Shown: positions 6,854-33,725 of the stretch, piece after piece
Position numbering within the stretch: position 1 is the stretch's first letter
Layout: every line of letters starts with the position of its first letter
Program-made: the position numbers and the translations under genes
Notes under the pieces: generated by a model
What the model saw: the letters and a program-made list of their open reading frames with translations, nothing else
Told to the model about the DNA's origin: nothing
The model's database searches: none
Assembly (NCBI GenBank): GCA_965262115.1
Contig: OZ253496.1
Location: forward strand, 512,001 to 576,000
DNA length: 64,000 nt
DNA from: Nitrospinales bacterium
GTDB taxonomy: Bacteria; Nitrospinota; Nitrospinia; Nitrospinales; VA-1
Direction of reading: 5' to 3'

Positions 6854-7201
6854 ATTCTTGGAAAATTTCAGAACAACATTAGAACAACAAGCGAGTTTGC
6901 CCCCGCAAATATACAGCATCTATGAGAATGATCAATAAAAAAACGGGGCTGTCCTAAAGCGTTGAGAATATGAGCAAAGAAATGATAAGAATAATATAAT
7001 CCAAGGTGTAAAGAGGCACAATCACATACATAAGTTCTGCCTTCAACCTTTACAAGTTCCGCATTTCCATGCTACTCCCCCTTCCATACTTTGCAAGTAC
7101 ATCTGAAATGCTCATGACGTTGCTCTCTTTAGGTTGTAATTTTCACCCAATAAAGAAAAATGGCCTACAGCATTTTATCTGTCCATAGACCATTATTTTT
7201 A

Positions 7202-13553: not shown

Positions 13554-14873
13554 TTAGAAAGTTACTGACATACCCAGATTCGCCACATAAGGCGGACTTG
13601 GACCCTTGTGAGGTTGCACAACTCTACCCAAGAGAGTTGCCGTAAACCTGACCAAAGGGTCTGGGCTAAAAATAATACTTGGACCGACAAGGCTGAGCCA
13701 ACCACCACGAAAATTGGGTCGATCCTTGGTATCCTCACTATTAGGAAATCGAAACTTACCTCCGTAAGTATCTTGTTCTTGCCAGTTTGATATGCTGGAC
13801 AATTGAACGGAAAAGTAGTCCTTATAGACAGGTATAACTATTGAACCAAAAATAGTCGCCAGATCTCCCCGGTTTACGCCATCATGCTCCGCGTTAAATC
13901 TATAAGCTCCGCCCCAGTGGATTGCGGCGCGATCAAAAGGCGTTCCTGCCAGAAAATCCGGGAGGTCACCAGGCAGAAACTGACGAGTAAAAAACGTAGC
14001 AACCTTGTATGACATTTCACCTGTACCCAATTGCCTTCCTGCTGGAAGCGTTCCGTCATTCGTAAATCTTTTGAATACTGGCCGCCCACCCTTTTGCCCA
14101 CCTTTGGGAGTAACAGAAATCACACCATTGTCTCCCGCCCTTTTATTCGTTGATCCGTTGGGGAAATAGACCCCTGCGGCTACCGCCCACCCAACAGGCG
14201 CATTACCCTGATCCCAGATTTTCTTTTTAAACATCAAATTAACATCCTGAATCCCTTCTGACGCTCCTCCATTAAAAACACTTTTAGCCCCATTGCCAAT
14301 ATGAGGCAACTGCACTGGCCCACGGCTGGTAGAGTTCTCATAAGTAACGTTCAGCACGGCTGTAAAACTATGAAAAAACTTCTTGTCCAGATCAAATCCA
14401 TAGCGCAGGGAAGTCGTTAAAAACCTTCTCTGAGCGGTATTATCGACATGAATCAGATCAATCTCTCCATCTTTCGTAAAGTCTTCGCCTTCGACGTTCA
14501 CAAACTTGAAACTTGTAGCTACTTGAAAAAGGCCAGGCGGGAGAACAAACGCGTGGCCGCCAACAGCAGGTACCAGCAAAGGCGGTATGAAGTTCTTTAC
14601 CTGAACCTTGATAAGGTCACGTTCTAATATCGTGAATTTTTCATCAACACCAAGATTTAAAAAACGATCCTCAAATCTTCGGCCCTGCAAATAATCACTA
14701 TCATGTACTTCAGCCGGAGCAACGACTGGAGAGGGCAGTTGATCTTTTTTGTCAATCCTACTGTCAGCCGCCAAAAAAAGGGGGGGGGTGGCACAAAAAA
14801 TTATTGATCCAACCAACAATATCAAGACCAACCTGTAAGGATAAAACTTAACCTTGGATAGCATGGGTAACAT
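13554..14873 (-). CDS. Putative outer-membrane beta-barrel transporter/porin (ORF extends to 14999; likely start 14873 or 14864)
   Basis: Signal-like hydrophobic N-terminus, alternating amphipathic strands, G-x-x-D-x-x-L-x-x-K motif (GIQDVNLMFK), and C-terminal Phe (LGMSVTF). Confidence 0.75.
   Translation of the reverse strand: MLPMLSKVKFYPYRLVLILLVGSIIFCATPPLFLAADSRIDKKDQLPSPVVAPAEVHDSDYLQGRRFEDRFLNLGVDEKFTILERDLIKVQVKNFIPPLLVPAVGGHAFVLPPGLFQVATSFKFVNVEGEDFTKDGEIDLIHVDNTAQRRFLTTSLRYGFDLDKKFFHSFTAVLNVTYENSTSRGPVQLPHIGNGAKSVFNGGASEGIQDVNLMFKKKIWDQGNAPVGWAVAAGVYFPNGSTNKRAGDNGVISVTPKGGQKGGRPVFKRFTNDGTLPAGRQLGTGEMSYKVATFFTRQFLPGDLPDFLAGTPFDRAAIHWGGAYRFNAEHDGVNRGDLATIFGSIVIPVYKDYFSVQLSSISNWQEQDTYGGKFRFPNSEDTKDRPNFRGGWLSLVGPSIIFSPDPLVRFTATLLGRVVQPHKGPSPPYVANLGMSVTF
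14773..14788 (-). repeat. C9-T7 homopolymer tract in the signal-peptide coding region of the beta-barrel gene
   Basis: A7G9 on the + strand, encoding T-P-P-L-F-L; currently in frame. Confidence 0.85.
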
Positions 14874-15013
14874 CAGTTCTTTCTTCAATTTAGGATTCCT
14901 AACAATTAAGGTTATGAAAATCAGGTGCGAAATTATGAACGACATAGTTGGAAAGGAGAAGCAGATGACTCTCTGGCCATTCCTCTGCATAATCCCCATG
15001 CCTTAACTGATTA

Positions 15014-18564: not shown

Positions 18565-20941
18565 ATCTTTTTCCATTGGCAAAGAGGGGATGCGCTCCTA
18601 CCAGTCCAGCCAGGAAAAAGCTCTCAAGCTCCCTGAATTAGACAAGGGGGAATCAGGCACTCCTGATTGGCAGTGGGGAAAAGATGAGAGACCACTTCCA
18701 CCCTCGGAATTGCAGTATTTGGAAGCTGAAGAGGAAGCTCCTGCGGCAGATTGGTTTTGGGCAAATGGAAATCCGTTGACAACAAATGAAAGTTTGGCCA
18801 TGCCCCGGTCACTAACCTTCCCAAACTGGATCCAGAATGGTGACGACCCCATCAACCGTTCGCCAGAAGAAACAAAATCTCAACCCGCCGGACAAGAAGT
18901 TTTTCTAACCGCCGACCACATGACGCATGATAATAACCGCAATCTCCTCTGGGCATGGGGAAAAGTGATTATCCGGTTGGATGACAGAGTTATTCGGGCA
19001 GATAAAGTCAAGGTGAACAATAAGACAGGAAACGGTAAGGCCACCGGCCATGTCATCATCACTCAAGATGACGGAACCCGTCTCAAATCCAAAAAAGCCC
19101 TGTTTAATATCAATAACCAGCAAGGCAAACTTTTTGAAACCCGAGGCAGGCTTGGTGAAAAGTATTATATCGAGGGAAAGGAAATCACCCGGTACTCTAA
19201 AAATCATTATAAAGTTCAGAAAGGACATCTCACAACCTGTGAAGGTAAGCTTCCGGATTGGCTTTTTGAAGCGGAATCGATGGACATTGTAATGGGTGAC
19301 CGGGTTCTTTTTACCAATGGGGTCTTTAAGATAAGAGATGTCCCCATCCTTTACATCCCGATAGGCTACCTGCCCATCGATCAGGAACGTAAAAGTGGAC
19401 TTCTAATTCCTTATTTTGGAAGCGGTAGTGTTGGGGGAGCCTCCTTTAACAATGCCTATTATTGGGCCATCAATGGGCACTCCGACGCGACATTCGGCTT
19501 GGATTATTCGGAGCAGCGCGGCTTCAAACCTTCAATTGAGTACAGGTACACCCCCAATAGTCATACTACGGGCTCCTTCAATGCTTCTTTTATTGATGAC
19601 AAGGCTACTGACTCTACATTCTGGAAAGTGGATGCCATCCACAAACAAACTCTCCCTCATGGTTTCAAGTTTAGTGGAAAACTTGACTTGGAAAGTGAGG
19701 AATTCAATAGAAACTTCAACGATAGCACCAGCCAAAGGGCCCGCCGCAATTCAGACTCCTACGCTACCATCACAAAAAACTGGGGAAGCAGTTCCTTGGA
19801 TATTCTGACCCGATATCAGGACAGTTCTGAATCAGACAGCGACCAAACCTTTGCGCAACTGCCTCAAATAACCCACAAGACACAAAGGCACTCCATTGGG
19901 GACACAGATTTTTTCTTCAGCCAGGATTCCAGCTTCACATCGTTTCTTACGGATCTGAATCAAAGCCCGGATGTAGACGACAATTTTTCCGTACAGCGCT
20001 TCGATTTTCATCCTAGAATCTCCTACACGACGAAAATCGCCCCGTGGCTTACTCTCACTCCTACCCTTGGGCTTAGAGAAACCATTTACAGTAAAGGGTT
20101 GGACACAACAGATAATAAAAATAAACGCCTGGGCTTTTTCACCCGGGAATCCTTCGATGTCAGCGCCAGTCTCCAGGGCCCAAGATTTGAAAAGATTTTC
20201 GACCTCAAAAATAAATACATCCCCAAGGTCAAACATTTAATAGAACCCCGCATCACCTATAATTACATTCCCGCCATGGATGAAACCGATCGTAGAAAAA
20301 TAAAAGTATTTGATAGCATCGATACCGTGAACCAACAAAGCACGATCACTTATTCGTTAACCCAAAGGATATTACAAAAGGAACGGGAGAAAGGTGACAA
20401 CTTTAATACCCGCGAAGTCCTTCGCTTTGATATCAGCCAAACGATTGATCTGATCGAGGCCACCGGATCGGAAACATCCGATAACAAGCGCCCATTTTCT
20501 GACCTTCGTTTTGACCTGGATAGCCGATTGTATGACAATTTGGAACTCAATTTCGACTCGACTTTTGACGTCCATGAAAATGTTCTCAAAACCTTTAACG
20601 TTGAGTTAGGGGTCAAACCCATTGACTCCCTATATCTTTTTTTTGAAAGGCGTTTTACCATAAATCAGGAAACCTTTCTCGTGGGTACCGTGGACTGGAC
20701 CTTCGGCGAAGGCTGGAGAATCCAAGGCACAACCCGCTTTGACGAAAAAGAAAAAGTATTTCAGGAAAACAACTTCAGCTTGCTATACGATAACCCCTGC
20801 AAATGCTGGGGTTTCAAATTTGATATAGTTGAAAGAAATAACCTTGCGCGAGGACTGGGGAGTGACAGGGAGGTCAAATATCTTTTGGGTATTACACTGA
20901 GAGGCCTCGGCTCTCTGAGCACGGGAAACAAAAAAAATTAA
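18515..20941 (+). CDS. lptD: LPS assembly protein LptD
   Basis: OstA-like N-domain (LTADHM, TTCEGKLPDW), RKSGLLIP, beta-barrel, and CKCWGF near the C-terminus; follows folC. Confidence 0.9.
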   Translation: MKTLLLVLGIFFTLTSESFSIGKEGMRSYQSSQEKALKLPELDKGESGTPDWQWGKDERPLPPSELQYLEAEEEAPAADWFWANGNPLTTNESLAMPRSLTFPNWIQNGDDPINRSPEETKSQPAGQEVFLTADHMTHDNNRNLLWAWGKVIIRLDDRVIRADKVKVNNKTGNGKATGHVIITQDDGTRLKSKKALFNINNQQGKLFETRGRLGEKYYIEGKEITRYSKNHYKVQKGHLTTCEGKLPDWLFEAESMDIVMGDRVLFTNGVFKIRDVPILYIPIGYLPIDQERKSGLLIPYFGSGSVGGASFNNAYYWAINGHSDATFGLDYSEQRGFKPSIEYRYTPNSHTTGSFNASFIDDKATDSTFWKVDAIHKQTLPHGFKFSGKLDLESEEFNRNFNDSTSQRARRNSDSYATITKNWGSSSLDILTRYQDSSESDSDQTFAQLPQITHKTQRHSIGDTDFFFSQDSSFTSFLTDLNQSPDVDDNFSVQRFDFHPRISYTTKIAPWLTLTPTLGLRETIYSKGLDTTDNKNKRLGFFTRESFDVSASLQGPRFEKIFDLKNKYIPKVKHLIEPRITYNYIPAMDETDRRKIKVFDSIDTVNQQSTITYSLTQRILQKEREKGDNFNTREVLRFDISQTIDLIEATGSETSDNKRPFSDLRFDLDSRLYDNLELNFDSTFDVHENVLKTFNVELGVKPIDSLYLFFERRFTINQETFLVGTVDWTFGEGWRIQGTTRFDEKEKVFQENNFSLLYDNPCKCWGFKFDIVERNNLARGLGSDREVKYLLGITLRGLGSLSTGNKKN

Positions 20942-21810: not shown

Positions 21811-21853
21811 TTGACATATGAAATCTATTTCGTGTATTATATTTCTTGTATTA
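21811..21853 (+). promoter_or_regulatory. Sigma70-like promoter with overlapping operator-like repeats
   Basis: TTGACA-N18-TATTAT; imperfect palindrome ATGAAAT-CT-ATTTCGT in the spacer; 14-bp tandem TATTTC(G/T)TGTATTA x2. Confidence 0.6.
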
Positions 21854-21907: not shown

Positions 21908-22201
21908 ATGAGCGCAAGAAAAATAAATACTCCGTCGTGGACTTTTTTGACGAATCATGGACACGTTCTGTTGTGTCTGGCCAAAAATCCGTCTGAACGC
22001 ATTCGAGACATTGCATTGGAAGTTGGAATCACGGAACGTGCAGTTCAGCGCATTATCGTTGAGCTGGAGGCGGGCCGGTATTTGGACCACATCCGCGAAG
22101 GAAGGAGAAACGTGTACAAAGTGTTCAGCCGCAAGCCCCTGAGACATGGTATTGAGAAACATCGACAAGTACATGATCTGATCCAGCTAATTAATAAATG
22201 A
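21908..22201 (+). CDS. Winged-helix transcriptional regulator (MarR/AsnC-like)
   Basis: [15 protein letters not shown]...[24 protein letters not shown]...REGRRNVY. Confidence 0.9.
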
Positions 22202-22391
22202 CTTGAAGCAAATCATAATGCCCATATATCAACATCCTCGATGAAGCCGAAAATATACTTAATTACTTACGGAATACTCGAGCTAATTATTTGGAAAATA
22301 AAAATACGGGAAATAAAAGCGAACTGAGTGAAGCGTTCTCATTTATGGGGAGTACGCTGGAGATCTCTATGCAAGAGGTAAATCCTTCTAT

Positions 22392-25300
22392 ATGAGTACT
22401 ATTTCAGTGAAGCCCCTTTCCTCAGAAGATCGTGATCGGGTTCGGCAAATTGTATTGAACGCCAGTGAGCCAATTGCGCCGTTTTGGCCCATGCGGACCA
22501 TGATCGCGCAGAATCCCATTCATGGATTGGAATATCTGCCGTTTGATCAGGCTGTTCGAAAAGGCCAGGCCCTCCTTGGTGGAAATGGGTATCTTGCGAA
22601 TGAGGAGTATCGTCAATTTTACCGAAACGGCCGTATTACCAAAGAAAGTTTTAAGCGCGCTTTTTCCAGGGTTGGGCCTCGCCCCGATGGACAGGTTTTT
22701 ATTGAAGTTGGAAGTCGAAAGGTTACCCCAAAAGATGCTTGGCAATTACACATACTTTTTGGCTTCGAGGAATTGCCATTATCCCTCTTGGAATGGGAGT
22801 TAAGCGGTGGTGGAGCTACAAAACAGTTTCGGCAAGATCTTTCCGAGGAATCCCAGAAACAAATTATTGAGCAAACCATCAAAGAATGTGAACAGTGTCC
22901 GGTGTATCCAGAAGAGGCCTACCTGACGAATTTATGGAAGAGTGTGTTAGCCACCTTCGGGCTATCTGATTTTCATGCTTCATCTCAAATATCTGGGGAT
23001 TCGCATTCGCAAACTTCAGCACCCATTTCCTTGTCGCCTCAACAGACCATCAGCGATTGGGTTGATGGTTTGACTGAGGGTGGGGTGGTCGACCAAGTCA
23101 ATAATCAACTCATAGAATGGGTGGCGGCGTTTCTCGATGAAGGATTAGCCGGCTGGGAAATGCCTGGCCGAGAAGTAGGTTTCTACCAAGTATGGCGGAA
23201 CCTGGCGCAGAAAGATTTTTCGGGGCAGCTTCTCGGGATTACAGATTTCGCCCAAAAAGTTCATAGCCTTCCTGCAGCTCCAGAGGACGCGATCCGTTCC
23301 AGCTTGCACCAACTCGAAATTCCCCAAGAACAATGGGAAGATTATCTCTCAAGGCAACTATCATTATTACCAGGCTGGACGCGATACATACGGTGGCTTG
23401 GGGAACACCCAACCTACCATGCGCAACACAAACATCCCATTGACACCACACAATATCTGGCCGTGCGTTTATTCTATGAAATGGAGTTGACCAACATTAA
23501 GTGCCAGCAAGAATGGGGAATTGATGGGACCGTTTCTACCCTGACTGCATATTGGAATGATCGACCCAAAGAATACCACCAACAAAGTTGGCATGGAGTG
23601 CAATCTGGGAATCAAACTAAACAGATGAAATGTCGATATGCTTGGCGATTATTCCATTTGGCACAGTTTCTTGAGTTATCTCCAAGAGAAGTTCAAGATC
23701 TCTCGCTTACTAATGCCCAGATGTTGTTGCAATGGTTAGATCACTTTCCTGCTGATCAACATGGAAGGGTATGGATTGAGGCATACGAAGATTCCTTTCG
23801 AGAGAAGATGCTGAGAAATATTTCAGCGCATCGCGGAACGGTACCAGAATTGGAAACTCGTCCCCATGCACAACTAGCCTTTTGTATCGACGTACGTTCC
23901 GAATCATTTCGTCGCCATATTGAAGCCCAGGGTTCCTATGAAACGTTTGGGTTTGCAGGGTTTTTTGGCATTCCCATTAGCCATCAAGCTTTTGATAGTA
24001 ATCAACGTTACTCTTTATGTCCGGTATTATTGACTCCTAACCATGCGGTAACGGAATCACCTCGGTCGGGAGAGGGAGCGGCGTTAGAAAAATATTCTTC
24101 TGGTACTCGCTGGTACCAACTGGGGCACCATCTTTTTCACGACCTGAAACATCATCCTATTGGGTCGATGATGATGATTGATGTATTGGGATTCTTTTTT
24201 AGTCTGGGGTTGGTGGGCAAGACCTTGTTCCAAAAAAGATTTCGTGGAATGACCTCTACTATCCAGAGTTGGTTGACGCATAGGGTTCCAACCCAGATCT
24301 CAATTTCCACGCCATCTAATCCTCAAAATCCCAGGATCGGAGAAGTGAATGCGGAAGGGATTCCTGACAGGCTTTCTCGGGGGTTTTCTCTTTCGGAACG
24401 GGCGATATTTATCAAAAATGGTTTGCGTGCTATGGGGTTCACCAAAAATTTTGCTCGTTTGGTGTGCCTCTGTGGCCATGGGAGTGAGACCGACAACAAT
24501 CCCTACTATGGGGCGTTGGATTGCGGGGCTTGCGGGGGAGCACCGGGCGATGCAAATGCGCGAGTTTTTGCCGCGATGGCGAATGAACCTGAAGTTCGTC
24601 GCATTCTCAAGGAAATAGGGTTGCCGATTCCCGATGACACCTGGTTTCTTCCGGGGAAACATAACACGACGACTGATCGGGTCGAGTTTTACGATCTAGA
24701 GGAACTGCCTGATTCGCATAAAGAATATTTTCAGGCGTTGAAAAAGAATCTCGAAGAAGCTGGTGCGAAGCAGGCTCTTGAGCGATGCCATCGCATTCCC
24801 AGTGCTCCGACTGAAATTTCTCCAGAGCAGGCTTTTGCTCATGTAGACGAACGCAGTTGCGATTGGGCGAATACTCGACCGGAATGGGGATTAGCGGGCA
24901 ATGGCGCATTTCTCATTGGAAAACGAAAACTGACCAAAGGGTTAGATTTAGGCGGTCGGGTTTTCTTGCATTCTTATGATTCTGCTGATGATCCCCAGGG
25001 AGCCATCCTCGAAAATATCATGACTGCGCCATTAATTGTCGGCCAGTGGATTAGCACAGGCTATTATTTTTCTACGGTTGATCCGTGGGTGTATGGAAGT
25101 GGCAGCAAGGTGTTGCACAATGTCGTCGGGGGTGTTGGGATGATGCTGGGAAGCCAAAGTGATTTGCAAATGGGATTCCCCTTACAAACAGTTAATAACG
25201 GAGAAACTCATTATCATGAACCTATGCGACTCTTAGCTATCATCGAACAGACACCGAGTGTAATCTCATCTGTCATTCAAAAACACTCGATCCTTCAACA

Positions 25301-25406
25301 GTTGTTTCATAATCAATGGCTCAATCTTGTGGCCTTGGATCCCAATACGTTTGAGTTTCATCGGTACAATTCGAATGCTTCTTGGGAATCCATACGGCTG
25401 GGGTAA
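22392..25406 (+). CDS. dabA: DUF2309 inorganic carbon transporter subunit DabA (beta-carbonic-anhydrase-like)
   Basis: IAPFWP...AQNPIHGLE, FCIDVRSE, GFAGFFG, CGHGS, ALDCGACGG, HNTTTD, DWANTRPEWGL, FLHSYD, HEPMRL; the Zn-ligand C/D/H/C set is intact. Confidence 0.95.
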   Translation: MSTISVKPLSSEDRDRVRQIVLNASEPIAPFWPMRTMIAQNPIHGLEYLPFDQAVRKGQALLGGNGYLANEEYRQFYRNGRITKESFKRAFSRVGPRPDGQVFIEVGSRKVTPKDAWQLHILFGFEELPLSLLEWELSGGGATKQFRQDLSEESQKQIIEQTIKECEQCPVYPEEAYLTNLWKSVLATFGLSDFHASSQISGDSHSQTSAPISLSPQQTISDWVDGLTEGGVVDQVNNQLIEWVAAFLDEGLAGWEMPGREVGFYQVWRNLAQKDFSGQLLGITDFAQKVHSLPAAPEDAIRSSLHQLEIPQEQWEDYLSRQLSLLPGWTRYIRWLGEHPTYHAQHKHPIDTTQYLAVRLFYEMELTNIKCQQEWGIDGTVSTLTAYWNDRPKEYHQQSWHGVQSGNQTKQMKCRYAWRLFHLAQFLELSPREVQDLSLTNAQMLLQWLDHFPADQHGRVWIEAYEDSFREKMLRNISAHRGTVPELETRPHAQLAFCIDVRSESFRRHIEAQGSYETFGFAGFFGIPISHQAFDSNQRYSLCPVLLTPNHAVTESPRSGEGAALEKYSSGTRWYQLGHHLFHDLKHHPIGSMMMIDVLGFFFSLGLVGKTLFQKRFRGMTSTIQSWLTHRVPTQISISTPSNPQNPRIGEVNAEGIPDRLSRGFSLSERAIFIKNGLRAMGFTKNFARLVCLCGHGSETDNNPYYGALDCGACGGAPGDANARVFAAMANEPEVRRILKEIGLPIPDDTWFLPGKHNTTTDRVEFYDLEELPDSHKEYFQALKKNLEEAGAKQALERCHRIPSAPTEISPEQAFAHVDERSCDWANTRPEWGLAGNGAFLIGKRKLTKGLDLGGRVFLHSYDSADDPQGAILENIMTAPLIVGQWISTGYYFSTVDPWVYGSGSKVLHNVVGGVGMMLGSQSDLQMGFPLQTVNNGETHYHEPMRLLAIIEQTPSVISSVIQKHSILQQLFHNQWLNLVALDPNTFEFHRYNSNASWESIRLG

Positions 25407-25415
25407 AGCAGAGTT

Positions 25416-25898
25416 ATGTCACCAATAACACTCATTCTAAAAACTATCGGACTTTTCGGGCTTTGGGTCTTGTTATCCGGCAAGCTGGACGCGTTTCATC
25501 TCTCAATTGGATTTCTCGGTGCTGCTTTGATTGCTTGGGTGAACACCGAACCTCAACATTTAGATGAACCACCATTGCCTCACGTACGACTTATCCTTTA
25601 TTGGCCTTGGTTATTCTTGGAAATTGTCAAGAGCAGTCTAAATATTACGAAAATTATTCTTGATCCAAAGCTTCCTATCAATCCACGACTCATCCAATAT
25701 CCTACTAATCTTGGAAGTAATCCAGCGGTTGTATTGTTGGGAAATTCTATTACGTTAACCCCGGGGACTGTCACGATTGAGGTCTCCTCCAGTGAATTGG
25801 TGATTCATGCTCTGGATGACAAATCATCCAGCGGTCTGGAGTCGAGAGACATGGAACGAAAAATTGCCGAGGCTTTCCATTCGAGGGGGCAAACCTGA
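25416..25898 (+). CDS. mrpE: Na+/H+ antiporter subunit E (MrpE/MbhA-like)
   Basis: LGNSITLTPGTVTI...LVIHAL. Confidence 0.92.
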   Translation: MSPITLILKTIGLFGLWVLLSGKLDAFHLSIGFLGAALIAWVNTEPQHLDEPPLPHVRLILYWPWLFLEIVKSSLNITKIILDPKLPINPRLIQYPTNLGSNPAVVLLGNSITLTPGTVTIEVSSSELVIHALDDKSSSGLESRDMERKIAEAFHSRGQT

Positions 25899-26170
25899 TG
25901 TTTACTTCGTACCATTTTTTCTTTCTCATTCTCACCATACTTATCCTTGTTTATATGTATCGGGTGTTTCAGGGTCCTACAGTTTACGACCGGATTTTGG
26001 GCCTAAATGGGATTTCAACCAAGGCCATTCTTTTGTTGACCATTTTGGGAAGTCTGTATGGACGAATAGAAATGTTTGTTGATATCGCGTTGGGCTATGC
26101 CATGCTCAACATTATTGGTGGACTGGCGGTAGGAAAATATCTAGAACAAAAAGGGACTCGGGAATGTTAG
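25898..26170 (+). CDS. mrpF: Na+/H+ antiporter subunit F (MrpF/MbhB-like)
   Basis: RVFQGPTVYDRILGL...FVDIALGYAML. Confidence 0.92.
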   Translation: MFTSYHFFFLILTILILVYMYRVFQGPTVYDRILGLNGISTKAILLLTILGSLYGRIEMFVDIALGYAMLNIIGGLAVGKYLEQKGTREC

Positions 26171-26463
26171 CAGTCGATACCCTATTAATTTGTATTGGCC
26201 TCTTTTTTCTGACGGTTGCGGCTATTGGCATCGTTCGTTTACCTGATGTCTTTTCCAGATCTCATGCGTTAAGCATTACCGATACCCTTGGCACTTTTTT
26301 TGTCTTAACAGGCGTGGCTTTTTATCAAGGGCTTACCCTTGCTGATGTGAAAATAATGTTGATTCTTCTTGCCCTTTGGCATCTTAATCCAGTCATTTCC
26401 CATGTGATCCTTAGAGTAGCTCTCCGAAATGGTGTGCGCCCTTGGGTCAAGGAGAAAAAATGA
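26164..26463 (+). CDS. mrpG: Na+/H+ antiporter subunit G (MrpG/MbhC-like)
   Basis: IGIVRLPDVFSRSHA...DTLG...PVISH. Confidence 0.92.
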   Translation: MLAVDTLLICIGLFFLTVAAIGIVRLPDVFSRSHALSITDTLGTFFVLTGVAFYQGLTLADVKIMLILLALWHLNPVISHVILRVALRNGVRPWVKEKK

Positions 26464-26999
26464 CGCTATTTGACGACTATCTTCTTCTTCTTTTGGCGGT
26501 TGTGACGGCACTGGGTGCTGTCTTTGTTCGCGACCTCTTTAGTGGAGTGCTTACCTTGGCTGCTTACAGTTTTTTTCTGGCACTTCTCTGGGCTGGTCTC
26601 GGAGCTGTTGATGTGGCCTTTACCGAAGCTGTTGTGGGTGCTGGCTTGTCCACCTTGTTTTTTTTGGTGGCCTTGTATCTAACCTCTCATCAAGAAGAAG
26701 TTCGCAAACAGTTGCCGGTACGGATAATGGCATTGGGGGGCCTGGGGATTCTGGGTTTTCTACTATTATTTGGGTCCGTGGATCTACCGGTGGTCGGGGA
26801 CCCTAAATCGCTACCTAGTAAACATGTTTCTTCCCACTATTTAAGAAAGAGTCTGGAGGAAACAGATACCCCCAATGTGGTGACGGCGGTGTTGGCCGAC
26901 TATCGAGGCTTCGACACCCTGGGCGAGACCACTGTCATATTTACCGCAGGGATAGCCTGTTGGATGTTATTAAGGAGAAGAGATAATTCAGCCACTTGA
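26460..26999 (+). CDS. DUF4040 + MbhE-like fusion (equivalent to the MrpA C-terminus / MbhD-E)
   Basis: AVDVAFTEAVVGAG and TPNVVTAVLADYRGFDTLGE. Confidence 0.88.
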   Translation: MTLFDDYLLLLLAVVTALGAVFVRDLFSGVLTLAAYSFFLALLWAGLGAVDVAFTEAVVGAGLSTLFFLVALYLTSHQEEVRKQLPVRIMALGGLGILGFLLLFGSVDLPVVGDPKSLPSKHVSSHYLRKSLEETDTPNVVTAVLADYRGFDTLGETTVIFTAGIACWMLLRRRDNSAT

Positions 27000-27435
27000 C
27001 AGTGTAATAGTTCACACCCTGACCAGAGTTATTACACCCGTTATTCAACTCTTTGCATTGTATGTACTTATTCATGGACACGATAGTCCAGGTGGCGGGT
27101 TCCAGGCAGGAACGTTGTTTGCGGCTAGTGTCATTCTGCCAATCATTGCCTTCGGCATTCAAGGTTCTCTGAGCGTGCTTGAAAGGCGAGCGATTATTTT
27201 AGGCGGGATCGGCATTTTACTTTTTGCGGGAATCGGTCTACTTCCACTTATCCTTGGAGGGGAGTTTTTAAATTACGGAAAACTGCCTATCCCAGGTATG
27301 GAGGCTTCTGCCAGGCGGCACTGGGGGATTTTGGGAATTGAAATAGGCGTTACGATTACGGTCGCTGCTACAGCCGTTTCAATTTATTATAGTTTGAGAG
27401 AACGCGGAGAAGGAGAGGAAAAACAGCATGGCTGA
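26983..27435 (+). CDS. mrpB: Na+/H+ antiporter subunit B (MrpB/MbhF-like); probable non-ATG start at 26983
   Basis: HGHDSPGGGFQAG. The frame is open from ATA at 26983 (IIQPLDSVIVHTLTRVITPVIQLFALY), behind an AGGAG RBS. Confidence 0.88.
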   Translation: MIQPLDSVIVHTLTRVITPVIQLFALYVLIHGHDSPGGGFQAGTLFAASVILPIIAFGIQGSLSVLERRAIILGGIGILLFAGIGLLPLILGGEFLNYGKLPIPGMEASARRHWGILGIEIGVTITVAATAVSIYYSLRERGEGEEKQHG

Positions 27436-27796
27436 CATATTTCTCTATCGTCCCCACTTTGTCGCGTTTATCATCCTATTTCTTTTGGGCATATATATCA
27501 TGGTGGTGTGTCTCAACCTGGTCAAAAAACTCATCGGTATGTACATCATGCAAACCAGTATCATGTTATTCTTTATCACCCTGGCAGTGAAAGAGGACAG
27601 TACGATTCCCATTATTTTGCCTTCTGTGACGGCATTGGCTCCCGAAGCCTATGCGAACCCCCTTCCCCATGTGTTGATGCTCACGGCGATTGTAGTTGGA
27701 GTTAGCACTCTTGGCGTTTCGCTTGCCATGGTTATTGCTTTGTACAGAGAGTACAACACATTGGAAGAAGATCAGATACTTGAAAAGATGAAATGA
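27428..27796 (+). CDS. mrpC: Na+/H+ antiporter subunit C (MrpC/MbhG-like)
   Basis: NLVKKLIG...NPLPHVLMLTAIVVG...Y.TLEED. Confidence 0.93.
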   Translation: MADIFLYRPHFVAFIILFLLGIYIMVVCLNLVKKLIGMYIMQTSIMLFFITLAVKEDSTIPIILPSVTALAPEAYANPLPHVLMLTAIVVGVSTLGVSLAMVIALYREYNTLEEDQILEKMK

Positions 27797-29265
27797 CCTC
27801 AAGCCTACCAGGTTTTTTATTCGCCATTCCCTTTTTTGCCGCAATTGTAATACCAGTTGTCGGTTTCACTAATCAGAAACTTTGTCGCCCGATTGCTCTC
27901 GGTGCTTTGGTTTTCCTTAGCATTGTATCGGTCATTGGCTTGAGTGAGGCTATATCGCATGGTCCACTGTCTCATGAATTTGGGGGATGGGCACCGCCTA
28001 TTGGCATTGAGTGGGTGATCGATGGGTTGAGCGGACTCCTAATGGTAGCGATTAGTATCGTCTCGCTTATTGCGCTTGTGCATGCAGGCCCTCTGGTCGA
28101 AAAAGAATTATCCGGTCGAGTGATACCCTTTTATTCTCTTTCTCTTCTGTTAATTGCAGCCTTGGGTGGAATGGTATTGGCCGGAGACCTGTTTAACCTT
28201 TTTGTTTTTTTAGAAATCGGCTCGCTGGCTAGTTATGTTCTGGTCGGTGTGGCTGGAGGCCGTTCTCTTCTTTCTGCTTATCGCTATTTGATTCTCGGTA
28301 CCATCGGGGCATCCCTATACTTGTTAGGTGTGGGGTATTTTTATGCGGAAACCGGAACGCTCAACGTGGCAGATATGGCGCTACGACTTCCGGATGTTCT
28401 CGATTCTCGGGCGGTGCTAACAGGGTTGATATTCATTGTCTTGGGGTTGTCCATTAAGATGGGATTATTCCCATTGCATGGATGGTTGCCTGATGCATAT
28501 ACCTACGCACCGGACTCTTGCACTCCTTTACTAGCCTCGGTGGTGACGAAAGTTCCATTATATGCTTTCGTCCGTATTGCCTTTTGGGTTTTTGGTATGG
28601 CCACGGTGACCACACAAATCCCAATCTTGGTGGTGCTGGGCTGGGTCGGTGCTGTGGCTGCGATTGTTGGAGCTTACCGTGCAATTTGGCAAGAAAATTT
28701 CAAACGCATGTTGGCGTATTCTAGCGTTTCCTCTATGGGATTAATTATGTTGGGTTTCAGTCTGGGTACTGAAACAGGATTTGCGGGAGGACTGTTTTAC
28801 CTCTTGGCGGATACCTTGATGAAAGCCGCTCTCTTTGGCGTGGCTGGAGCCGCGAGCTGTCAATATGGCGCGAGTACAGTGACAGACCTTGCGCGATTGC
28901 GACGAAACATGCCCTGGGTGTTGGCTGCATTGGTTATCTCGGCATTGTCCATGGTGGGCATTCCTCCGACTGCTGGATTTTTCGGAAAATGGCACTTGGT
29001 CGTCGGTGCATTGGAGGCTGAGAAATACTTTGCTGTCGTTGCTATTTTGGTCACGAGTATGCTGACCGCCTTGTATTTCTTTCGAATGTTTCAACGTGTG
29101 TGGGCCGAAGAATCCCTTCCGCTAGTTGAGCCTCATGTTCTCGAGACGCCCTTTCCCATAAGGATGAGTTTAGGTGTTCTGACTTTCGGGATTATAGCGT
29201 TGGGGTTGGGAAGTGATCTTGTTATGGGGTTAATTTTTGAGTCGGTTATCCCGAAGGGATTTTAA
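27793..29265 (+). CDS. mrpD: Na+/H+ antiporter subunit D (MrpD/MbhH-like)
   Basis: GGWAPPIGIE, DLFNLFVFLEI, KMGLFPLHGWLPDAY, KRMLAYSS, GIPPTAGFFGKW. Confidence 0.92.
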   Translation: MTSSLPGFLFAIPFFAAIVIPVVGFTNQKLCRPIALGALVFLSIVSVIGLSEAISHGPLSHEFGGWAPPIGIEWVIDGLSGLLMVAISIVSLIALVHAGPLVEKELSGRVIPFYSLSLLLIAALGGMVLAGDLFNLFVFLEIGSLASYVLVGVAGGRSLLSAYRYLILGTIGASLYLLGVGYFYAETGTLNVADMALRLPDVLDSRAVLTGLIFIVLGLSIKMGLFPLHGWLPDAYTYAPDSCTPLLASVVTKVPLYAFVRIAFWVFGMATVTTQIPILVVLGWVGAVAAIVGAYRAIWQENFKRMLAYSSVSSMGLIMLGFSLGTETGFAGGLFYLLADTLMKAALFGVAGAASCQYGASTVTDLARLRRNMPWVLAALVISALSMVGIPPTAGFFGKWHLVVGALEAEKYFAVVAILVTSMLTALYFFRMFQRVWAEESLPLVEPHVLETPFPIRMSLGVLTFGIIALGLGSDLVMGLIFESVIPKGF

Positions 29266-29290
29266 TTTCTTTAACTAAAGTGAATGGGTT

Positions 29291-31231
29291 GTGATGGAAT
29301 TTGTGTATATCTTTATCCCGCTTCTCCCTTTATTGGCGTTTGTTGTACTTGCGTTGGGTGGTAGCCGGTTTCCAAGCGATAGTCATAAAATAGGGATCCC
29401 TGCAATTGCAGGCTCTTTTATATTGTCGATCCTTGCTTTTGTCCAGGTCTCGAAAAATGGCCCGATTGATGTGCCGCTTTATACTCTGCTGGAGTCTGGA
29501 AATTTAACGATTGACTTGGGTTTGCATATCGATCAGTTGACTGTGCTACTGCTTTTGGTAACTGGTGTCAGCGGTGTGGTTCATGTGTACTCCTCTAGAT
29601 ACATGATCGATGATCCTAAATACAATCGATTCTTCGCGGTGATTGCACTCTTTACTTTTTCCATGCTCATGGTGGTAATGAGTCGCAACCTGCTCATGCT
29701 TTATTTTTTTTGGGAGGTCATGGGGCTCTGTTCTTATCTGCTGATTTCTCATGCTGCAGATAGAAAGTCAGCTGGACAAGCTGCGACCAAAGCGTTTTTG
29801 GTCAATGCCGTAGCTGATGTAGGATTCGGTCTGGGTGTGATTCTTGCGTTCAGGACATTTGGTACACTCGATATTCCTCAGATTTTGGAACTAGCTCCAG
29901 CCATGGCTAATGATACAGTAAATGTCCTCGCGTGGATGGGTCTTGATCTTCATATTCGATCTGTCACACTTATTTCACTGCTTTTATTTACAGGTGTGAT
30001 GGGTAAATCCGCACAGATTCCATTTCATGTGTGGTTGCCGTTTGCTATGGAAGCTCCCACACCTGTGTCTGCATTAATCCATGCTGCAACCATGGTGAAT
30101 GCGGGTCCATTTTTGTTAGTGCGATTGAGTCCATTGATTATTCTTTCTCCGTTCGCCATGACGGTCATTTTCATTATTGGTGCCACTACCGCGGTATTTG
30201 CTGGGTTAGTTTCCTTGACTCAATCGGACATCAAAAAGATTTTGGCCTATTCCACAATGAGTCAAATCGGGTTCATGGTTATGGCATGTGGTTTGGGCGC
30301 GTTTGCAGTTGCGATTTTCCATCTTCTTGCCCATGGGTGCTACAAAGCGTTCTTTTTTCTATCTACCGGCAATGCGTTGCGATCAGTGGAACAGGGCCTT
30401 GGGCATGGTGACCATGAACACCCTGTCTCTGATGGCATGGGGGTCTTATATGGCGGGGCCTTGTTGTTGGCGTTACTCCCGCCGTTAGTGCTGTTTTCCG
30501 GATCGTATGAATATTTGTGGGGGGTCACGGGGTTTATTTCTGCCACGATCGGATTTAAAGTCATTGGCTTGGTTACGGTATTTGTGACTTCTCAATATCT
30601 TTTTAAAGGTGTCACCTCGCTTTTTGTTCACGGTCCAAAGACGTACTGGCCCGCTTCAGGACAGCATAGTTTGGAGACGCAATCTATTCGACCACAGCTT
30701 TTAAATAGCTCCATTTTAACTGGCCTTTTTCTGGCTACGTTTTTTGTAGGGGGGCTATTGACTCTGTTTTGGAGTTGGTTCGCCGACTTTCTTGCTCCGG
30801 CTTTGACCTTTCCAGGAGTCACGTTGGGCGAAGGTGCAGTTGAGCATGGCTTTCCTTTTTGGCTTGTGGTTTCTCTTGGTGTGGCAATTGCGGGATGGGT
30901 CTATGCATACTCAACACAAGTTCGATCTCAACATCAGGTCTCCAGAGCAAGTAGGATAAGCAATCGATGGTATGTCCTATTTTGGAATAAATTCTACGTC
31001 GATGAAATCTACGATATGTATATCGTAAATCCCATCATCCGGTTGGCCCAACGGTTCTCTCGATCGGCTGAGACGAGAGAAATGCGACAGAGTATGTGGA
31101 AGTTCGGTCTTCAGACTATGCCTTTGAGCGACATGTTAGTCTTTGCCAAACCACGCTTAATTGGGCACAACATTCTCTTTTTGATTTTTGGTTTTGTGTT
31201 TATCATGAGCCTTCTTTATATTTTGAGTTAA
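29291..31231 (+). CDS. dabB: NuoL/ND5-like proton-pumping subunit (probable DabB partner of DabA)
   Basis: FWEVMGLCSYLLI, GKSAQIPFHVWLPFAMEAPTPVSALIHAATMV, KKILAYSTMSQIG, HGCYKAFFFL; in the same operon as dabA. Confidence 0.82.
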   Translation: MMEFVYIFIPLLPLLAFVVLALGGSRFPSDSHKIGIPAIAGSFILSILAFVQVSKNGPIDVPLYTLLESGNLTIDLGLHIDQLTVLLLLVTGVSGVVHVYSSRYMIDDPKYNRFFAVIALFTFSMLMVVMSRNLLMLYFFWEVMGLCSYLLISHAADRKSAGQAATKAFLVNAVADVGFGLGVILAFRTFGTLDIPQILELAPAMANDTVNVLAWMGLDLHIRSVTLISLLLFTGVMGKSAQIPFHVWLPFAMEAPTPVSALIHAATMVNAGPFLLVRLSPLIILSPFAMTVIFIIGATTAVFAGLVSLTQSDIKKILAYSTMSQIGFMVMACGLGAFAVAIFHLLAHGCYKAFFFLSTGNALRSVEQGLGHGDHEHPVSDGMGVLYGGALLLALLPPLVLFSGSYEYLWGVTGFISATIGFKVIGLVTVFVTSQYLFKGVTSLFVHGPKTYWPASGQHSLETQSIRPQLLNSSILTGLFLATFFVGGLLTLFWSWFADFLAPALTFPGVTLGEGAVEHGFPFWLVVSLGVAIAGWVYAYSTQVRSQHQVSRASRISNRWYVLFWNKFYVDEIYDMYIVNPIIRLAQRFSRSAETREMRQSMWKFGLQTMPLSDMLVFAKPRLIGHNILFLIFGFVFIMSLLYILS

Positions 31232-31279
31232 ATGCGAGATTGTCGAAATTTTTATGGAACTTAAGGGTCTATTGATTCG

Positions 31280-32782
31280 ATGCTTTCAAATCACCTTCTG
31301 AGTTGGCTGCTTGTGCTTCCCTCCTTGGGAATTGGAGCCTTATGCTGTATACGAGACCGAGAAATGGTCAATCGCGTCGCCTTGGCCAGCACCCTTCTCA
31401 CCTTTGGCTTGTCGGTAATCATCTGGATGCAGTTCGATTTTGCAAAAGCCGATATGCAATTTGTTGAACGATTCGAATTAATGCCAACGCTAAAGGTTCA
31501 GTATGCCTTGGGTATTGACGGCATCAGCCTTATCATGGTCGTCCTGACTGCTTTGCTGACTCCCATTGCCGTTTTGTGCTCTTGGAACACTATCAAAACA
31601 AATCTGCATGTTTTTATGGTCCTCATTCTCTTGTTGGAGACAGCCACACTCGGCGTATTTCTTTCGCTAGATTTGGTATTCTTCTATATTTTTTGGGAAC
31701 TTACGATGGTGTGTGCGTACTTTTTGATGGTGGTATGGGGGGGACCGGGTCGAAGCTCTGCTGGATTAAAATTTGTCCTGTATAGCTTTGGCGGTGGCCT
31801 TCTTCTCTTATTGGCTATATTGGGCCTCTATGTTCAGGGTGGACAAACATTTGATCTAGTGACGTTATCAGATTATGCATTTAGCACTTCTACTCAATAC
31901 TGGTTATTTCTCGCATTTTTTCTGGCCTTTGCTATTAAGGTCCCCATGATTCCTTTTCATGCTTGGTTGCCGGGTGCTTATGCTGAATCACCCACTGCTG
32001 GCAGTGTTATTTTAGCTGGAGCATTATCCAAGATGGGAGCCTACGGATTGTTGCGTGTCTGCCTACCTCTTTTCCCTGAAGCTTCCATTTATTTTGCACC
32101 ATTCATTTTATGGCTGTCGATTGCAGCCATTATTTACGGTGGACTCATGGCTTTAGCACAGACTGATCTTAAAAAGCTCGTGGCCTATTCTTCAGTTTCC
32201 CACATGGGTTTTGTCACTCTCGGAATTTTTGTGTTCAATAGCCAAGGTATCCAGGGGGCCGTCTTGCAAATGTTTAATCACGGGATTATTACGGCAGCCT
32301 TATTTATTGCTGTTGGACAATTGTACGACCGCACTCACAGTCGAGCGATTTCTGACTACGGCGGCTTGCATAAACCCATGCCCAGATTTGTTGCATTGTT
32401 CTTTTTGTTTTCAGTCGCCGCCTTTGGGCTACCAGGCACCAGTAATTTCATTGGCGAATTTTTAGTCTTAGTAGGAACTTCTTATGTCAGCTTTGCCATG
32501 GTTATTATCTCTATGGGCGGTATTGTTTTAGCTGCCGCATATATGTTGTGGATGCTCCAAAGGGTGGTGTTGGGAGAGCCATCGACAGAAGCCGCCAAAG
32601 TGCTCCCAGATTTAGCGAATCGGGAATTGGCTACGCTGATTCCATTGGCTATCCTCGTATTGTGTATTGGATTGTATCCCGGACCATTGATGGAGATGAT
32701 GGATGCGAGTGTAACTCACCTCATCCACCAAACAACAGGGCTGCAAGTTGATGAAATATCTCAACTTCCGCTTAGGCCCTAA
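31280..32782 (+). CDS. nuoM: NuoM/ND4-like antiporter-like subunit
   Basis: LGIDGISL, FFYIFWE, KVPMIPFHAWLP, KMGAYG, KKLVAYSSVSHMG, LPGTSNFIGEF. Confidence 0.88.
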   Translation: MLSNHLLSWLLVLPSLGIGALCCIRDREMVNRVALASTLLTFGLSVIIWMQFDFAKADMQFVERFELMPTLKVQYALGIDGISLIMVVLTALLTPIAVLCSWNTIKTNLHVFMVLILLLETATLGVFLSLDLVFFYIFWELTMVCAYFLMVVWGGPGRSSAGLKFVLYSFGGGLLLLLAILGLYVQGGQTFDLVTLSDYAFSTSTQYWLFLAFFLAFAIKVPMIPFHAWLPGAYAESPTAGSVILAGALSKMGAYGLLRVCLPLFPEASIYFAPFILWLSIAAIIYGGLMALAQTDLKKLVAYSSVSHMGFVTLGIFVFNSQGIQGAVLQMFNHGIITAALFIAVGQLYDRTHSRAISDYGGLHKPMPRFVALFFLFSVAAFGLPGTSNFIGEFLVLVGTSYVSFAMVIISMGGIVLAAAYMLWMLQRVVLGEPSTEAAKVLPDLANRELATLIPLAILVLCIGLYPGPLMEMMDASVTHLIHQTTGLQVDEISQLPLRP

Positions 32783-33005: not shown

Positions 33006-33725
33006 ATGCCCAAATTAGAGATAGGTCCTATCGGTTTACTCCCCCCTTCTGCCGCAGCAATGGGTATTTTCTCGCCTGACAAAGATTCAGGATTGGACTT
33101 GGTTGAAGGAGAGCAGGTTCCAACTGACGAAGCTATCAAAAAAGCCGCGCGCGAAATATTGACTCGTCGCAACCCGACCCTTTTTCCCGGGCCAATGATT
33201 GTTTGGGGGTGGACTAAGGAAACCGTACATAAGGCAGAGTTGGCAATGGAGCTGGTCAATGAGGTCCCCGGTATGAACATAATTACCATGCCCGACTACC
33301 GGCCCATTTATCCTAAAATTGATCCCGAATGGGTGATCAACCCCTGCCATCCAAACCTGACCATTCAGCATAATAAAATTGAGACTTGCATCCTTATCGG
33401 AGTGCATTGTCATTTCGCAAATATAACTCTGAAAATGATCCGCGCAAATACCAATTGCTACACCATGGCATTTTGTCAGTACGATGGTCATGAAGATGCG
33501 CTTATCTCTTTAAGAGATGTGGCTGATGTTAAACTGCAAAAGGTGACGGAAGCAATTCGCCAGGCTAAAAAGGATGGTGTAGAACCTTGGGGCCTGACTA
33601 AGGCAGGGAAAGATGAACTGGAAGATATCGCCGCTCGAAAAGCGGCTGCAAAGGCTCCCGCAAAAGCAGACACCACTCTGTTTATGGGAGAATTGGAGCA
33701 GGGACTGGACGAAAACGCAGAGTGA
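33006..33725 (+). CDS. porD: Delta subunit of five-subunit pyruvate/2-oxoglutarate:ferredoxin oxidoreductase (CODH beta-subunit-like family)
   Basis: GP.GLLPPSAAAMG...RNPTLFPGP...MPDYRPIYPKIDP..VINPCHPNLTI.HNKI..C..IGVHCHFAN..LKMIRA.TNC...GHEDA; GGAGGT RBS. Confidence 0.8.
   Translation: MPKLEIGPIGLLPPSAAAMGIFSPDKDSGLDLVEGEQVPTDEAIKKAAREILTRRNPTLFPGPMIVWGWTKETVHKAELAMELVNEVPGMNIITMPDYRPIYPKIDPEWVINPCHPNLTIQHNKIETCILIGVHCHFANITLKMIRANTNCYTMAFCQYDGHEDALISLRDVADVKLQKVTEAIRQAKKDGVEPWGLTKAGKDELEDIAARKAAAKAPAKADTTLFMGELEQGLDENAE

Follow-up and report, generated by a model that had tools for sequence, protein, structure and literature searches.

DAB-type vectorial carbonic anhydrases combine a catalytic subunit, DabA, with a membrane partner, DabB, which is a relative of NuoL. 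According to those parts of the DAB1 study (Thermocrinis albus cryo-EM, PMC13684180) and of the DAB2 preprint (10.64898/2026.03.13.711513) that deal with subunit contacts, DabA binds the cytoplasmic face of DabB, and a two-helix finger of DabA is wedged into transmembrane helices (TM) 12-15, where a conserved Glu of the finger replaces Lys399/Asp400 of NuoL. The preprint also describes DAB2 as Na+-independent and contains the argument that MpsAB uses Na+. A preliminary description of the DNA studied here had taken characterised DAB systems to be essentially two-subunit, a view that does not hold for DAB1, which in the published account of its composition comprises DabA, DabB and DabC (PMC13684180). 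Here we analyse a stretch of 64,000 nucleotides (nt) from a Nitrospinales bacterium (contig OZ253496.1, positions 512,001 to 576,000; hereafter the window), in which open reading frame (ORF) calls and Pfam and NCBIfam profiles define a dabA-mrp-nuoL/nuoM locus at 21908-32782, all on the + strand. Sequence comparisons suggest that dabA and the nine genes behind it, up to that of the NuoM-like subunit, probably encode one DAB-like supercomplex. In this supercomplex DabA would bind the NuoL-like end of an arm that resembles both Mrp and complex I.

The DabA protein of the window retains all motifs by which DabA is coupled to DabB in the solved DAB complexes. It aligns with DabA2 (PDB 9rd0_A, E 1.3e-115), and the Zn ligands C498, D500, H696 and C711, which correspond to C351, D353, H524 and C539 of DabA2, are invariant across a 42-row DabA alignment. 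We defined the DAB-specific motifs as the lid GI(A/G)GFFG, NNPYxxALDCGACGG, DW(xxx)RPEWGL and a membrane finger that bears an acidic residue. All of them are present, i.e. the lid GFAGFFG at residues 520-526, NNPYYGALDCGACGG at 702-716, DWANTRPEWGL at 824-834 and the finger at 589-613, and N910 and G920 are retained as well. The only strongly hydrophobic stretch of the protein (residues 590-608) lies in the finger, together with D597, which is invariant and aligns with the Glu of DAB1-type DabA. The equivalence of D597 with E444 is based on this alignment and on the text of the DAB paper; the finger region alone gave no match to DabA2 among PDB sequences. A search for DabA representatives returned 1857 relatives at E<=1e-30, few of them full-length and close; genomic context is absent from this set, which was used for family size only.

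Behind dabA follow nine membrane genes, namely mrpE, mrpF, mrpG, a fused MbhD/MbhE gene (DUF4040), mrpB, mrpC, mrpD and genes for a NuoL-like and a NuoM-like pump subunit. Profiles thus bear out the gene content given in the preliminary description, including the intact Zn ligands of DabA. The order E-F-G-(D/E)-B-C-D, described there as Mbh-like, is complete and equals that of the stand-alone Mrp of Pyrococcus furiosus as set out in the portion of PMC8415708 on this antiporter; in the naming used there, the MbhD/E fusion is the counterpart of MrpA's C-terminal domain and of the 'MrpB' of P. furiosus. Complex I, the membrane-bound hydrogenase (MBH) as well as the related MBS complex are defined by NuoH/MbhM together with a NuoB/C/D/I-type module. 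No NuoH, NuoB/C/D/I or hydrogenase family member was detected among the 16 + 34 window proteins scanned, which confirms the earlier statement that a redox arm is missing.

The three pump subunits retain their channel residues in 24-row alignments, apart from the TM12 Lys of the NuoL-like subunit. In MrpD, whose best PDB matches are MbsH (6u8y_H, 212 bits) and MrpD (7qru_D, 197 bits), E141, K222, K253 and K399 are invariant, as are E140, K220, K251 and E393 in the NuoM-like subunit, which is closest to NuoM/ND4 (394 bits). The NuoL-like subunit scores best with NuoL/ND5 of complex I (268 bits; NdhF1/NuoL 262-268), followed by DabB2 (131), NdhF3 (129) and MrpA (118-124 bits). It belongs to the NuoL lineage by PF00361 and PF00662 and, like DabB, is devoid of the TM12 Lys/Asp: TM12 reads LFSGSYEYLW, with G404 in place of the Lys, where both complex-I NuoLs of the same genome have FSK(D/E). 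The charge is retained in these two NuoLs, in 7/7 extra pumps of relatives that have no DabA, in MrpD (K399) and in the NuoM-like subunit (E393); among the pump subunits compared, loss of the TM12 lysine is confined to the NuoL-like one. The residue equivalent to R175 is also missing, which breaks an R175/E144-type ion pair as in DabB2, by a different route (loss of the Arg).

Other parts of the NuoL-like subunit are those of a complex-I NuoL. It has a full lateral helix (HL) and TM16, where DabB has an HL stub only, and E142, the TM5 Glu at the interface with the neighbouring subunit, is invariant, while it is replaced in DabB. The short HL, the replaced TM5 Glu and the closest kinship to DabB/NdhF3-4 that mark a DabB are not found here. 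In the variable loop after TM11 no residue matches DabB H328/R331, and R364/E367 are present instead. Characterised DAB operons place a PF00361 partner of ~550 amino acids (aa) without a long lateral helix beside dabA, but here mrpE follows dabA and the NuoL-like gene lies eight genes downstream. By these comparisons the NuoL-like subunit is DabB-like at the expected DabA site and resembles NuoL at the expected contact with a neighbouring pump. The NuoM-like subunit, in turn, looks like a full-size counterpart of DabC. Its residues 279-437 are matched (E 1e-4) by a DabC-like protein of a related locus (L008) in which the TM12 Glu is missing, and this agrees with the published description of DabC as similar to those NuoM helices that lie beside NuoL.

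Table 1. Genes of the dabA-mrp-nuoL/nuoM locus, in window coordinates
Feature	Position	Strand	Profile evidence
Small winged-helix-turn-helix-like protein (wHTH), 97 aa, putative; possible regulator	21908..22201	+	HTH_24 20.2 bits, under the 21.9 cut-off
dabA, beta-carbonic-anhydrase-like catalytic subunit, 1004 aa, 'long' Mrp-linked clade	22392..25406	+	PF10070 883.9 bits (cut-off 25)
mrpE (MbhA-like)	25416..25898	+	PF01899 114 bits
mrpF (MbhB-like)	25898..26170	+	PF04066 49 bits
mrpG (MbhC-like)	26164..26463	+	PF03334 78 bits; TIGR01300 over cut-off
Fused MbhD+MbhE / DUF4040	26442..26999	+	PF13244 + PF20501; NF009159 177 bits, over cut-off
mrpB (MbhF-like; MrpB' of P. furiosus)	27058..27435	+	PF04039 76 bits
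mrpC (NuoK/MbhG-like)	27428..27796	+	PF00420 70 bits
mrpD, Mrp/MBS-type antiporter-like pump subunit	27793..29265	+	PF00361
NuoL-like pump subunit, 646 aa; proposed DabA docking subunit	29291..31231	+	TIGR01974 463.5 bits, over cut-off; PF00361 + PF00662
NuoM-like pump subunit, candidate full-size DabC counterpart	31280..32782	+	TIGR01972 588.6 bits, over cut-off

To follow the linkage of dabA with the membrane block we compared 65 related loci (L numbers), one genome per species, with DabA 52-99% identical. Fifty of these have at least 9.5 kb downstream of dabA, and in 44 of them all nine membrane genes follow in the same order; a 45th (L024) shows six of the nine behind an inserted cassette before the locus ends, and the remaining five have none. 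The other 15 loci end early, and those genes that fit before the contig end are present in order. The neighbourhood survey proposed in the preliminary description thus did not reveal the lack of linkage that would have spoken against a joint function, and the conserved linkage supports its claim that DabA acts with the membrane block and not alone. Linked loci are labelled Nitrospinota, Nitrospirales/Nitrospirota, 'Deltaproteobacteria' (one metagenome-assembled genome, L050) and Acidobacteriota/Bryobacterales (L051, L057-59). The unit is therefore not bound to autotrophy by the reductive tricarboxylic acid (rTCA) cycle, with which it had first been connected, and a profile scan of the window ORFs found no rTCA gene in the window. 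In DabA-less relatives from Nitrospirota (L072-L080 and the minus strand of L083) E-F-G-DE-B-C-D is followed by two PF00361 genes, which shows the membrane block to be a unit in its own right. Separate operons of the canonical mrpA(B)CDEFG type are seen in other Nitrospinota (L069, L070), at 30-38% identity.

Joint presence and loss were surveyed in 120 Nitrospinota genomes and a sample of 401 Nitrospirota genomes (G numbers), with the MbhD/E orthologue as marker of the block. The marker is found in 38 Nitrospinota, 37 of which have a long dabA beside it on the same contig, while the contig of the 38th (G030) breaks off within the block; three genomes of the same genus (G072-G074, 98% complete) have neither dabA nor marker. 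Both are present in 30 of the 401 Nitrospirota, within 11 kb of each other in 29 and 262 kb apart in one (G244). A broken or truncated long dabA without the marker is seen in eight Nitrospirota, and a distant DabA-less block in nine. An orthologous block without dabA was encountered in none of the genomes of the two surveys. Apparent cases were rejected, since contigs end in G030 and G046, a diverged dabA is present in G483, and the nine other Nitrospirota carry the distant DabA-less type.

Loss of the block goes along with decay of dabA. All five block-less loci among the 50 have a broken long dabA: residues about 485-951, the catalytic core, are lost in L063-65, and there are two frameshifts in L066 and one in L053. 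These loci occupy at least two places of the DabA tree. L063-66 retain a canonical cassette of DabB, DabC-like protein, DabA and P-II next door, and this canonical set evidently fails to rescue the broken long dabA.

Further evidence comes from loci in which the block is a mosaic. A rarer form of the block, type 1, is found in the window, in the closest named relative, Nitrospina sp. LS_NOB (L002; DabA identity 99%), and in G080, L034, L036, L038 and L049. In a DabA tree (24 rows, as in the following three) the window falls inside Nitrospina, and a clade of window and L036 is rejected (p 8e-47). The tree of the seven Mrp genes places the window with L036, a Nitrospirales locus, and rejects the native placement (p 3e-7), and so does the NuoM tree (p 0.004). 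The NuoL tree favours neither placement (p 0.098), because the NuoL-like gene is itself a mosaic. Its residues 1-250 are nearest to L036 (80% vs 77% or less for each of 36 type-2 rows), while residues 261-560 are nearest to L016, L003 and L004 (87-89% vs 68% for L036), which are also the loci with the closest DabA. In 42-row trees of the two parts, the N-terminal part joins six type-1 rows in one clade (support 98; native placement rejected, p 0.004), and the middle part joins the window to 15 Nitrospinota rows (support 100; type-1 clade rejected, p 7e-6). Likewise, residues 1-200 of the NuoM-like subunit are of type 1 (71% vs at most 55%) and residues 401-485 are native (94% vs 59%). Over the native parts the window is 87-94% identical to Nitrospina rows and 59-68% to L036. 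The same boundaries recur in L036 with its native relative L047 (DabA 81%, NuoL middle part 81%, NuoM end 89%). The groups were named after the trees or identity tables had been seen.

In two phyla, then, the Mrp genes, NuoL-like residues 1-250, the HL and NuoM-like residues 1-200 are foreign and arrived together, whereas dabA, NuoL-like residues 261-560 (TM8-15) and NuoM-like residues 401-485 stayed native together. As the native parts are those whose counterparts contact DabA in DAB1 (DabB TM11-15 and DabC), we count this pattern in favour of docking.

In the model that we consider probable, a DAB-type vectorial carbonic anhydrase would have its single DabB partner replaced by a complex-I-like arm, with the membrane order NuoL-like, NuoM-like, MrpD, MrpC/MbhDE/MrpB and MrpF/G/E, and with the lateral helix of the NuoL-like subunit clamping its neighbours. 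At the cytoplasmic face, DabA would rest on the NuoL-like subunit and extend to the NuoM-like subunit, and its hydrophobic finger with D597 would enter TM12-15 of the former, supplying the lost charged residue as in DAB2. Protons may run downhill through the three antiporter-like channels and be exchanged against Na+ at the MrpEFG end. This cation flow would drive a conformational cycle that gates the buried active site, so that CO2 is converted to HCO3- in the cytoplasm and the back reaction is blocked. Gene content, its conservation, joint presence and loss, the conserved motifs and the mosaic are what the sequences show, whereas the sharing of one complex by all ten proteins, the docking site, and the ions with their number and direction are inferred. 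Coupling to both Na+ and H+, as first proposed, would fit this scheme. We suggest only tentatively that the Mrp sodium module serves as energy input in place of a quinone or hydrogenase module and that the distal NuoL-type subunit drives DabA.

Several observations weigh against a single complex of this kind. The gap between dabA and mrpE, 9 nt in the window, is below 100 nt in 9 of 45 loci, 115-614 nt in 24 and 1.5-7.4 kb in 12, where other genes are inserted; co-transcription is hence not required, and the tight coupling noted in the preliminary description holds for the window locus and fails as a general trait (36 of 45 relatives have gaps of 115 nt to 7.4 kb). In G244 (L081, L082; Nitrospirota) it is an intact dabA and an intact nine-gene block that lie 262 kb apart, and in type-2 Nitrospina loci the spacer between dabA and mrpE carries a hairpin and a T-run. 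The frameshifts in L053 (one) and L066 (two) occur in long-read assemblies and may be errors, in which case dabA would be intact without the block; an interrupted dabA frame is also seen in three loci with an intact block (L013, L023, L045), and related genomes in the joint-loss counts are non-independent samples. Crossovers at conserved stretches could be another cause of the mosaic, and the N-terminal half of the NuoL-like subunit, which is also expected under DabA, is foreign. By overall similarity this subunit is a complex-I NuoL and not a DabB (268 vs 131 bits), and the length of its HL differs between loci by 0 to 3 repeat units of 27 aa, which a fixed arm length leaves unexplained. Finally, the P. 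furiosus mrpEFGBB'CD, as characterised in PMC8415708, acts without MrpA/NuoL, so that the Mrp part could stand alone.

This last point underlies an alternative that we regard as unlikely, namely that selection acts jointly on two machines encoded here. The first would be a DAB1-like trimer, with DabA joined by the NuoL-like subunit in the role of DabB and the NuoM-like subunit in that of DabC, and the second a separate P. furiosus-type Mrp (EFG-DE-B-C-D). This Mrp would export Na+, for example Na+ that enters through transporters of the SulP/BicA type, whose genes lie next to dabA in relatives. The seven genes are identical in kind and order to the MrpA-independent set of P. furiosus, SulP genes lie just upstream of dabA in 30 of the 65 loci, and a cooperation of Mrp with BicA has been proposed by Daebeler et al. 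2020 (PMC7784846). The DabC-like protein is a degenerate C-terminal half of a NuoM, and the evidence on the side of DabA, i.e. motifs and socket, fits two machines equally well. Such an arrangement would, however, have the Mrp genes split the DAB genes. The full or extended HL and TM16 of the NuoL-like subunit far exceed what is needed to hold one NuoM, for which DabB has a stub only, and in DabA-less relatives mrpD is followed by two extra pump genes in identical order. Moreover, NuoL-like residues 1-250, the HL and NuoM-like residues 1-200 moved with the Mrp genes in two phyla, and one half without the other was found in no surveyed genome. These points argue for one complex.

If there is one complex, DabA might instead replace the redox module at the Mrp end, as the preliminary description had proposed. 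In MBH and MBS the catalytic module is attached to the Mrp-type module, with MbhM/NuoH and hydrogenase at this place in MBH, and dabA directly precedes mrpE. We nevertheless consider this position improbable, as no observation puts DabA at the site of the redox module. A NuoH/MbhM homologue that could hold a peripheral module was not found among the 50 window proteins, DabA retains the finger and the motifs that bind the TM11/TM12 region of NuoL-type subunits, the matching TM12 loss is confined to the NuoL-like subunit, and it is NuoL-like TM8-15 that moves with dabA while the Mrp genes do not. Finger, TM11-coupling motifs and the TM12 loss point to docking at the distal, NuoL-like end as the more likely site. 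Finally, a free cytoplasmic DabA beside an ordinary Mnh/Mrp salt-tolerance antiporter, with no physical link, is very improbable: orphan DAC subunits of Nitrospira (FEMS Microbes 2026, PMC13147460) and the block of N. gracilis (PMC3578206) are so read in the respective passages, and the two can be distant as in G244, but DabA retains a predicted membrane-inserting finger and all coupling motifs, characterised DabA is described as inactive without DabB in the relevant parts of PMC13147460 and of the DAB2 preprint (10.64898/2026.03.13.711513), dabA decays on loss of the block, and no orthologous block was seen without dabA in the genomes surveyed.

The lateral helix of the NuoL-like subunit varies in an unusually regular manner. 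With constant gene content, the C-terminal tail from HL start to end is quantised in steps of 27 residues, with 79-81 aa in type 1 (81 aa in L002), 107-108 aa in five loci, 134-136 aa in 27 and 162-163 aa in five. The steps are tandem amphipathic repeats of the WLWRxxDxxxID type within the lateral helix (L003-L062, e.g. L004:17051-19240). A NuoL insert of 26 aa has been tied to one extra pump subunit in the '2M' complex I of Nitrospira (PMC9040806).

The surroundings of dabA differ between loci. The type-2 spacer of 117-213 nt (L003, L004, L005, L007, L011, L016, L018, L020 and others) has a conserved hairpin followed by a T-run, which may terminate or attenuate transcription between dabA and the membrane genes; no such spacer is present in the window locus. 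Genes found in the long dabA-mrpE gaps encode an HtrA-like protease, a helicase and a canonical DAB1-type cassette. In L043 a 1226-aa DEAD-helicase/DUF559 (restriction-endonuclease-like) gene (L043:13091-16771) lies between dabA and mrpE. A canonical cassette beside the long-dabA unit is present in 9 of 65 loci (L008:2855-9444, L010:245-6864, L023, L024:13038-19664, L049 and L063-L066) and comprises DabB (~565 aa), an unnamed protein of 378-437 aa, DabA (~1082 aa) and P-II. The unnamed membrane protein has no Pfam match and is weakly similar to the C-terminal half of the NuoM-like subunit. MpsC-like genes (PF10057) directly adjoin dabA, mostly divergently, in 19 of 65 loci (e.g. L024:9485-9940, L083:7533-7916 and 19059-19418) and are absent from the window locus.

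In the window locus the genes of the membrane block are separated by -22 to +58 nt, and 190 nt lie between the wHTH gene and dabA. Homologues of the wHTH protein are encoded upstream of dabA in 13 of 65 loci, and that of L050 matches HTH_24 with 35.3 bits; the wHTH protein may control the operon. A promoter-like site at 21811-21840 scores 11/12, but the scan gave fewer sites than shuffled sequence (13 vs 17.3). Promoter predictions were set aside for this reason, and terminator predictions because the matches lie inside T-rich membrane genes. The only matches in an Rfam scan were two tRNAs; near the operon it gave no RNA element. Contigs from marine RNA libraries (four runs, three studies) cover 28-30 of 30 operon bins at 90-99% likeness and span the dabA/mrpE, mrpD/nuoL and nuoL/nuoM joints; as they derive from relatives and may include DNA carry-over, they hint weakly at expression and do not prove a single transcript.

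The source genome is a single contig of 2.68 Mb and 93.9% complete. It encodes no second mrp set, a single PF10070 gene, and two complete nuoL/M/N sets at about 801-806 kb and 978-981 kb. One of the complex-I NuoL paralogues (about 979.9-981.7 kb) has Ala at the TM5 Glu site (WALVG vs WEGVG). A family search of this genome found no SulP, SbtA, alpha- or beta-carbonic anhydrase, and the dabA block is its sole system for uptake or hydration of inorganic carbon among the families searched. By profile, the locus is flanked by a phosphoribosyltransferase and LptD upstream and by a PF02552 protein and DnaK downstream. The PF02552 gene (CO dehydrogenase beta / acetyl-CoA synthase epsilon family; window 33006-33725) follows the NuoM-like gene only here and in L002, and a paralogue with 52% identity is located at about 2.005 Mb. 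Elsewhere in the window, on the - strand, a gene for a Vsr mismatch endonuclease adjoins a 166-aa ORF (5398-5799 and 6419-6919). The match of this ORF to the C-5 cytosine methylase profile is limited to the first 54 positions, and it is possibly a remnant. A 1016-aa protein (10466-13516, - strand) has one cytochrome c domain at residues about 782-862 as its sole family match, and the ORFs on either side (9373-10260 and 13554-14999) have no family match.

Parts of this unit have been reported under different names. In its main text, which does not mention Mrp genes, COGNAT 2017 (PMC5700660) lists ybcC/DUF2309 upstream of a nuoL homologue, often near SulP and NuoM. The passages of Daebeler 2020 (PMC7784846) on a haloalkalitolerant Nitrospira describe Mrp genes with nuoM/nuoL-like genes, called extra mrpA/D-like, and bicA, and do not include dabA. 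The Nitrospina block figures as an eight-subunit Mnh antiporter in Lücker 2013 (PMC3578206), and Scott and co-workers 2026 (PMC13147460), where they treat Nitrospira, regard its DabA as an orphan that probably works without membrane subunits. No paper that joins dabA to the Mrp/Nuo block was found in full-text literature searches, while the supplements of COGNAT, Daebeler and the DAB papers, which lay outside this search, may show the adjacency without comment. The unit is real and conserved, a large variant of the DAB pump that apparently has not been described. As one unit it would reconcile three published readings, i.e. salt-tolerance antiporter, extra mrpA/D-like genes and orphan DabA.

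Nitrospina and marine Nitrospirales account for most oceanic nitrite oxidation and much of the dark-ocean carbon fixation. On the more tentative reading, with the Mrp module as energy input, the main nitrite oxidisers of the ocean could power CO2 capture by the Na+ gradient of the sea as well as by the proton motive force. This would be a third route to a vectorial carbonic anhydrase, after the redox-driven (CupA) and single-proton-channel (DabB) types, in which a complex-I-like arm does chemistry without a redox module, as a chemolithotroph counterpart of NDH-1MS/CupA. It would also allow long-range coupling along complex-I-type arms to be put to the test, and the replicated mosaic would represent a natural domain swap that maps the DabA footprint to NuoL TM8-15 and the C-terminal part of NuoM.

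Compared with DAB1, DAB2 (DabA2-DabB2 of Halothiobacillus neapolitanus; 9rd0/9rd8/9rd9) and MpsAB(C) of Staphylococcus aureus, the locus has the same DabA family, Zn site, lid and finger and both DabB-coupling motifs. It shares with DAB1 and DAB2 a membrane partner of the NuoL lineage without the TM12 Lys/Asp and with DAB1 a NuoM-derived neighbour, DabC there and a full NuoM here, and the MpsC-like genes beside dabA in 19 of 65 relatives recall MpsAB(C). It differs in the number of membrane genes, nine as opposed to one or two, and in its partner, which is a NuoL of full length including the lateral helix, TM16 and the TM5 Glu. It also differs in a NuoM that keeps all channel residues, which DabC has lost, in the attached complete Mrp Na+/H+ module, and in a dabA that is not adjacent to the presumed partner gene.

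With the group 3 Mrp of P. furiosus, as presented in the part of Haja and Adams 2021 on this group (PMC8415708), and with the solved Mrp complexes (6z16, 7qru, 7d3u), the locus shares the seven subunit types, their order and an MrpD of Mrp/MBS type; here, however, genes for a NuoL and a NuoM of complex-I type follow, and the module is tied to dabA in evolution. Like MBH, MBS (6cfw, 6u8y) and complex I, it joins an Mrp-type module to pumps clamped by a lateral helix, with three pumps as in complex I, but it has no NuoH/MbhM, NuoB/C/D/I or cofactor-binding subunit, and its catalysis would be hydration and not redox chemistry. The DabA-less three-pump Mrp blocks of L072-L080 and L083 (minus strand) have the same first seven genes in the same order and two pump genes behind them. 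Identity to these blocks is 27-49%, their extra pumps are not NuoL or NuoM of complex-I type and keep the TM12 Lys, and dabA and any carbonic anhydrase are absent from their neighbourhood.

In cyanobacterial NDH-1MS, CupA sits on NdhF3/NdhD3 (6tjv), i.e. on the distal NuoL-type end. CupA is unrelated to DabA, and the NuoL-like subunit resembles NdhF1/NuoL (262-268 bits) more closely than NdhF3 (129 bits). If the docking model holds, both systems would nevertheless carry a CO2-hydrating protein at the distal NuoL-type end of their arm, driven by a redox arm in NDH-1MS and, in the Nitrospinales locus, by an ion gradient via Mrp.

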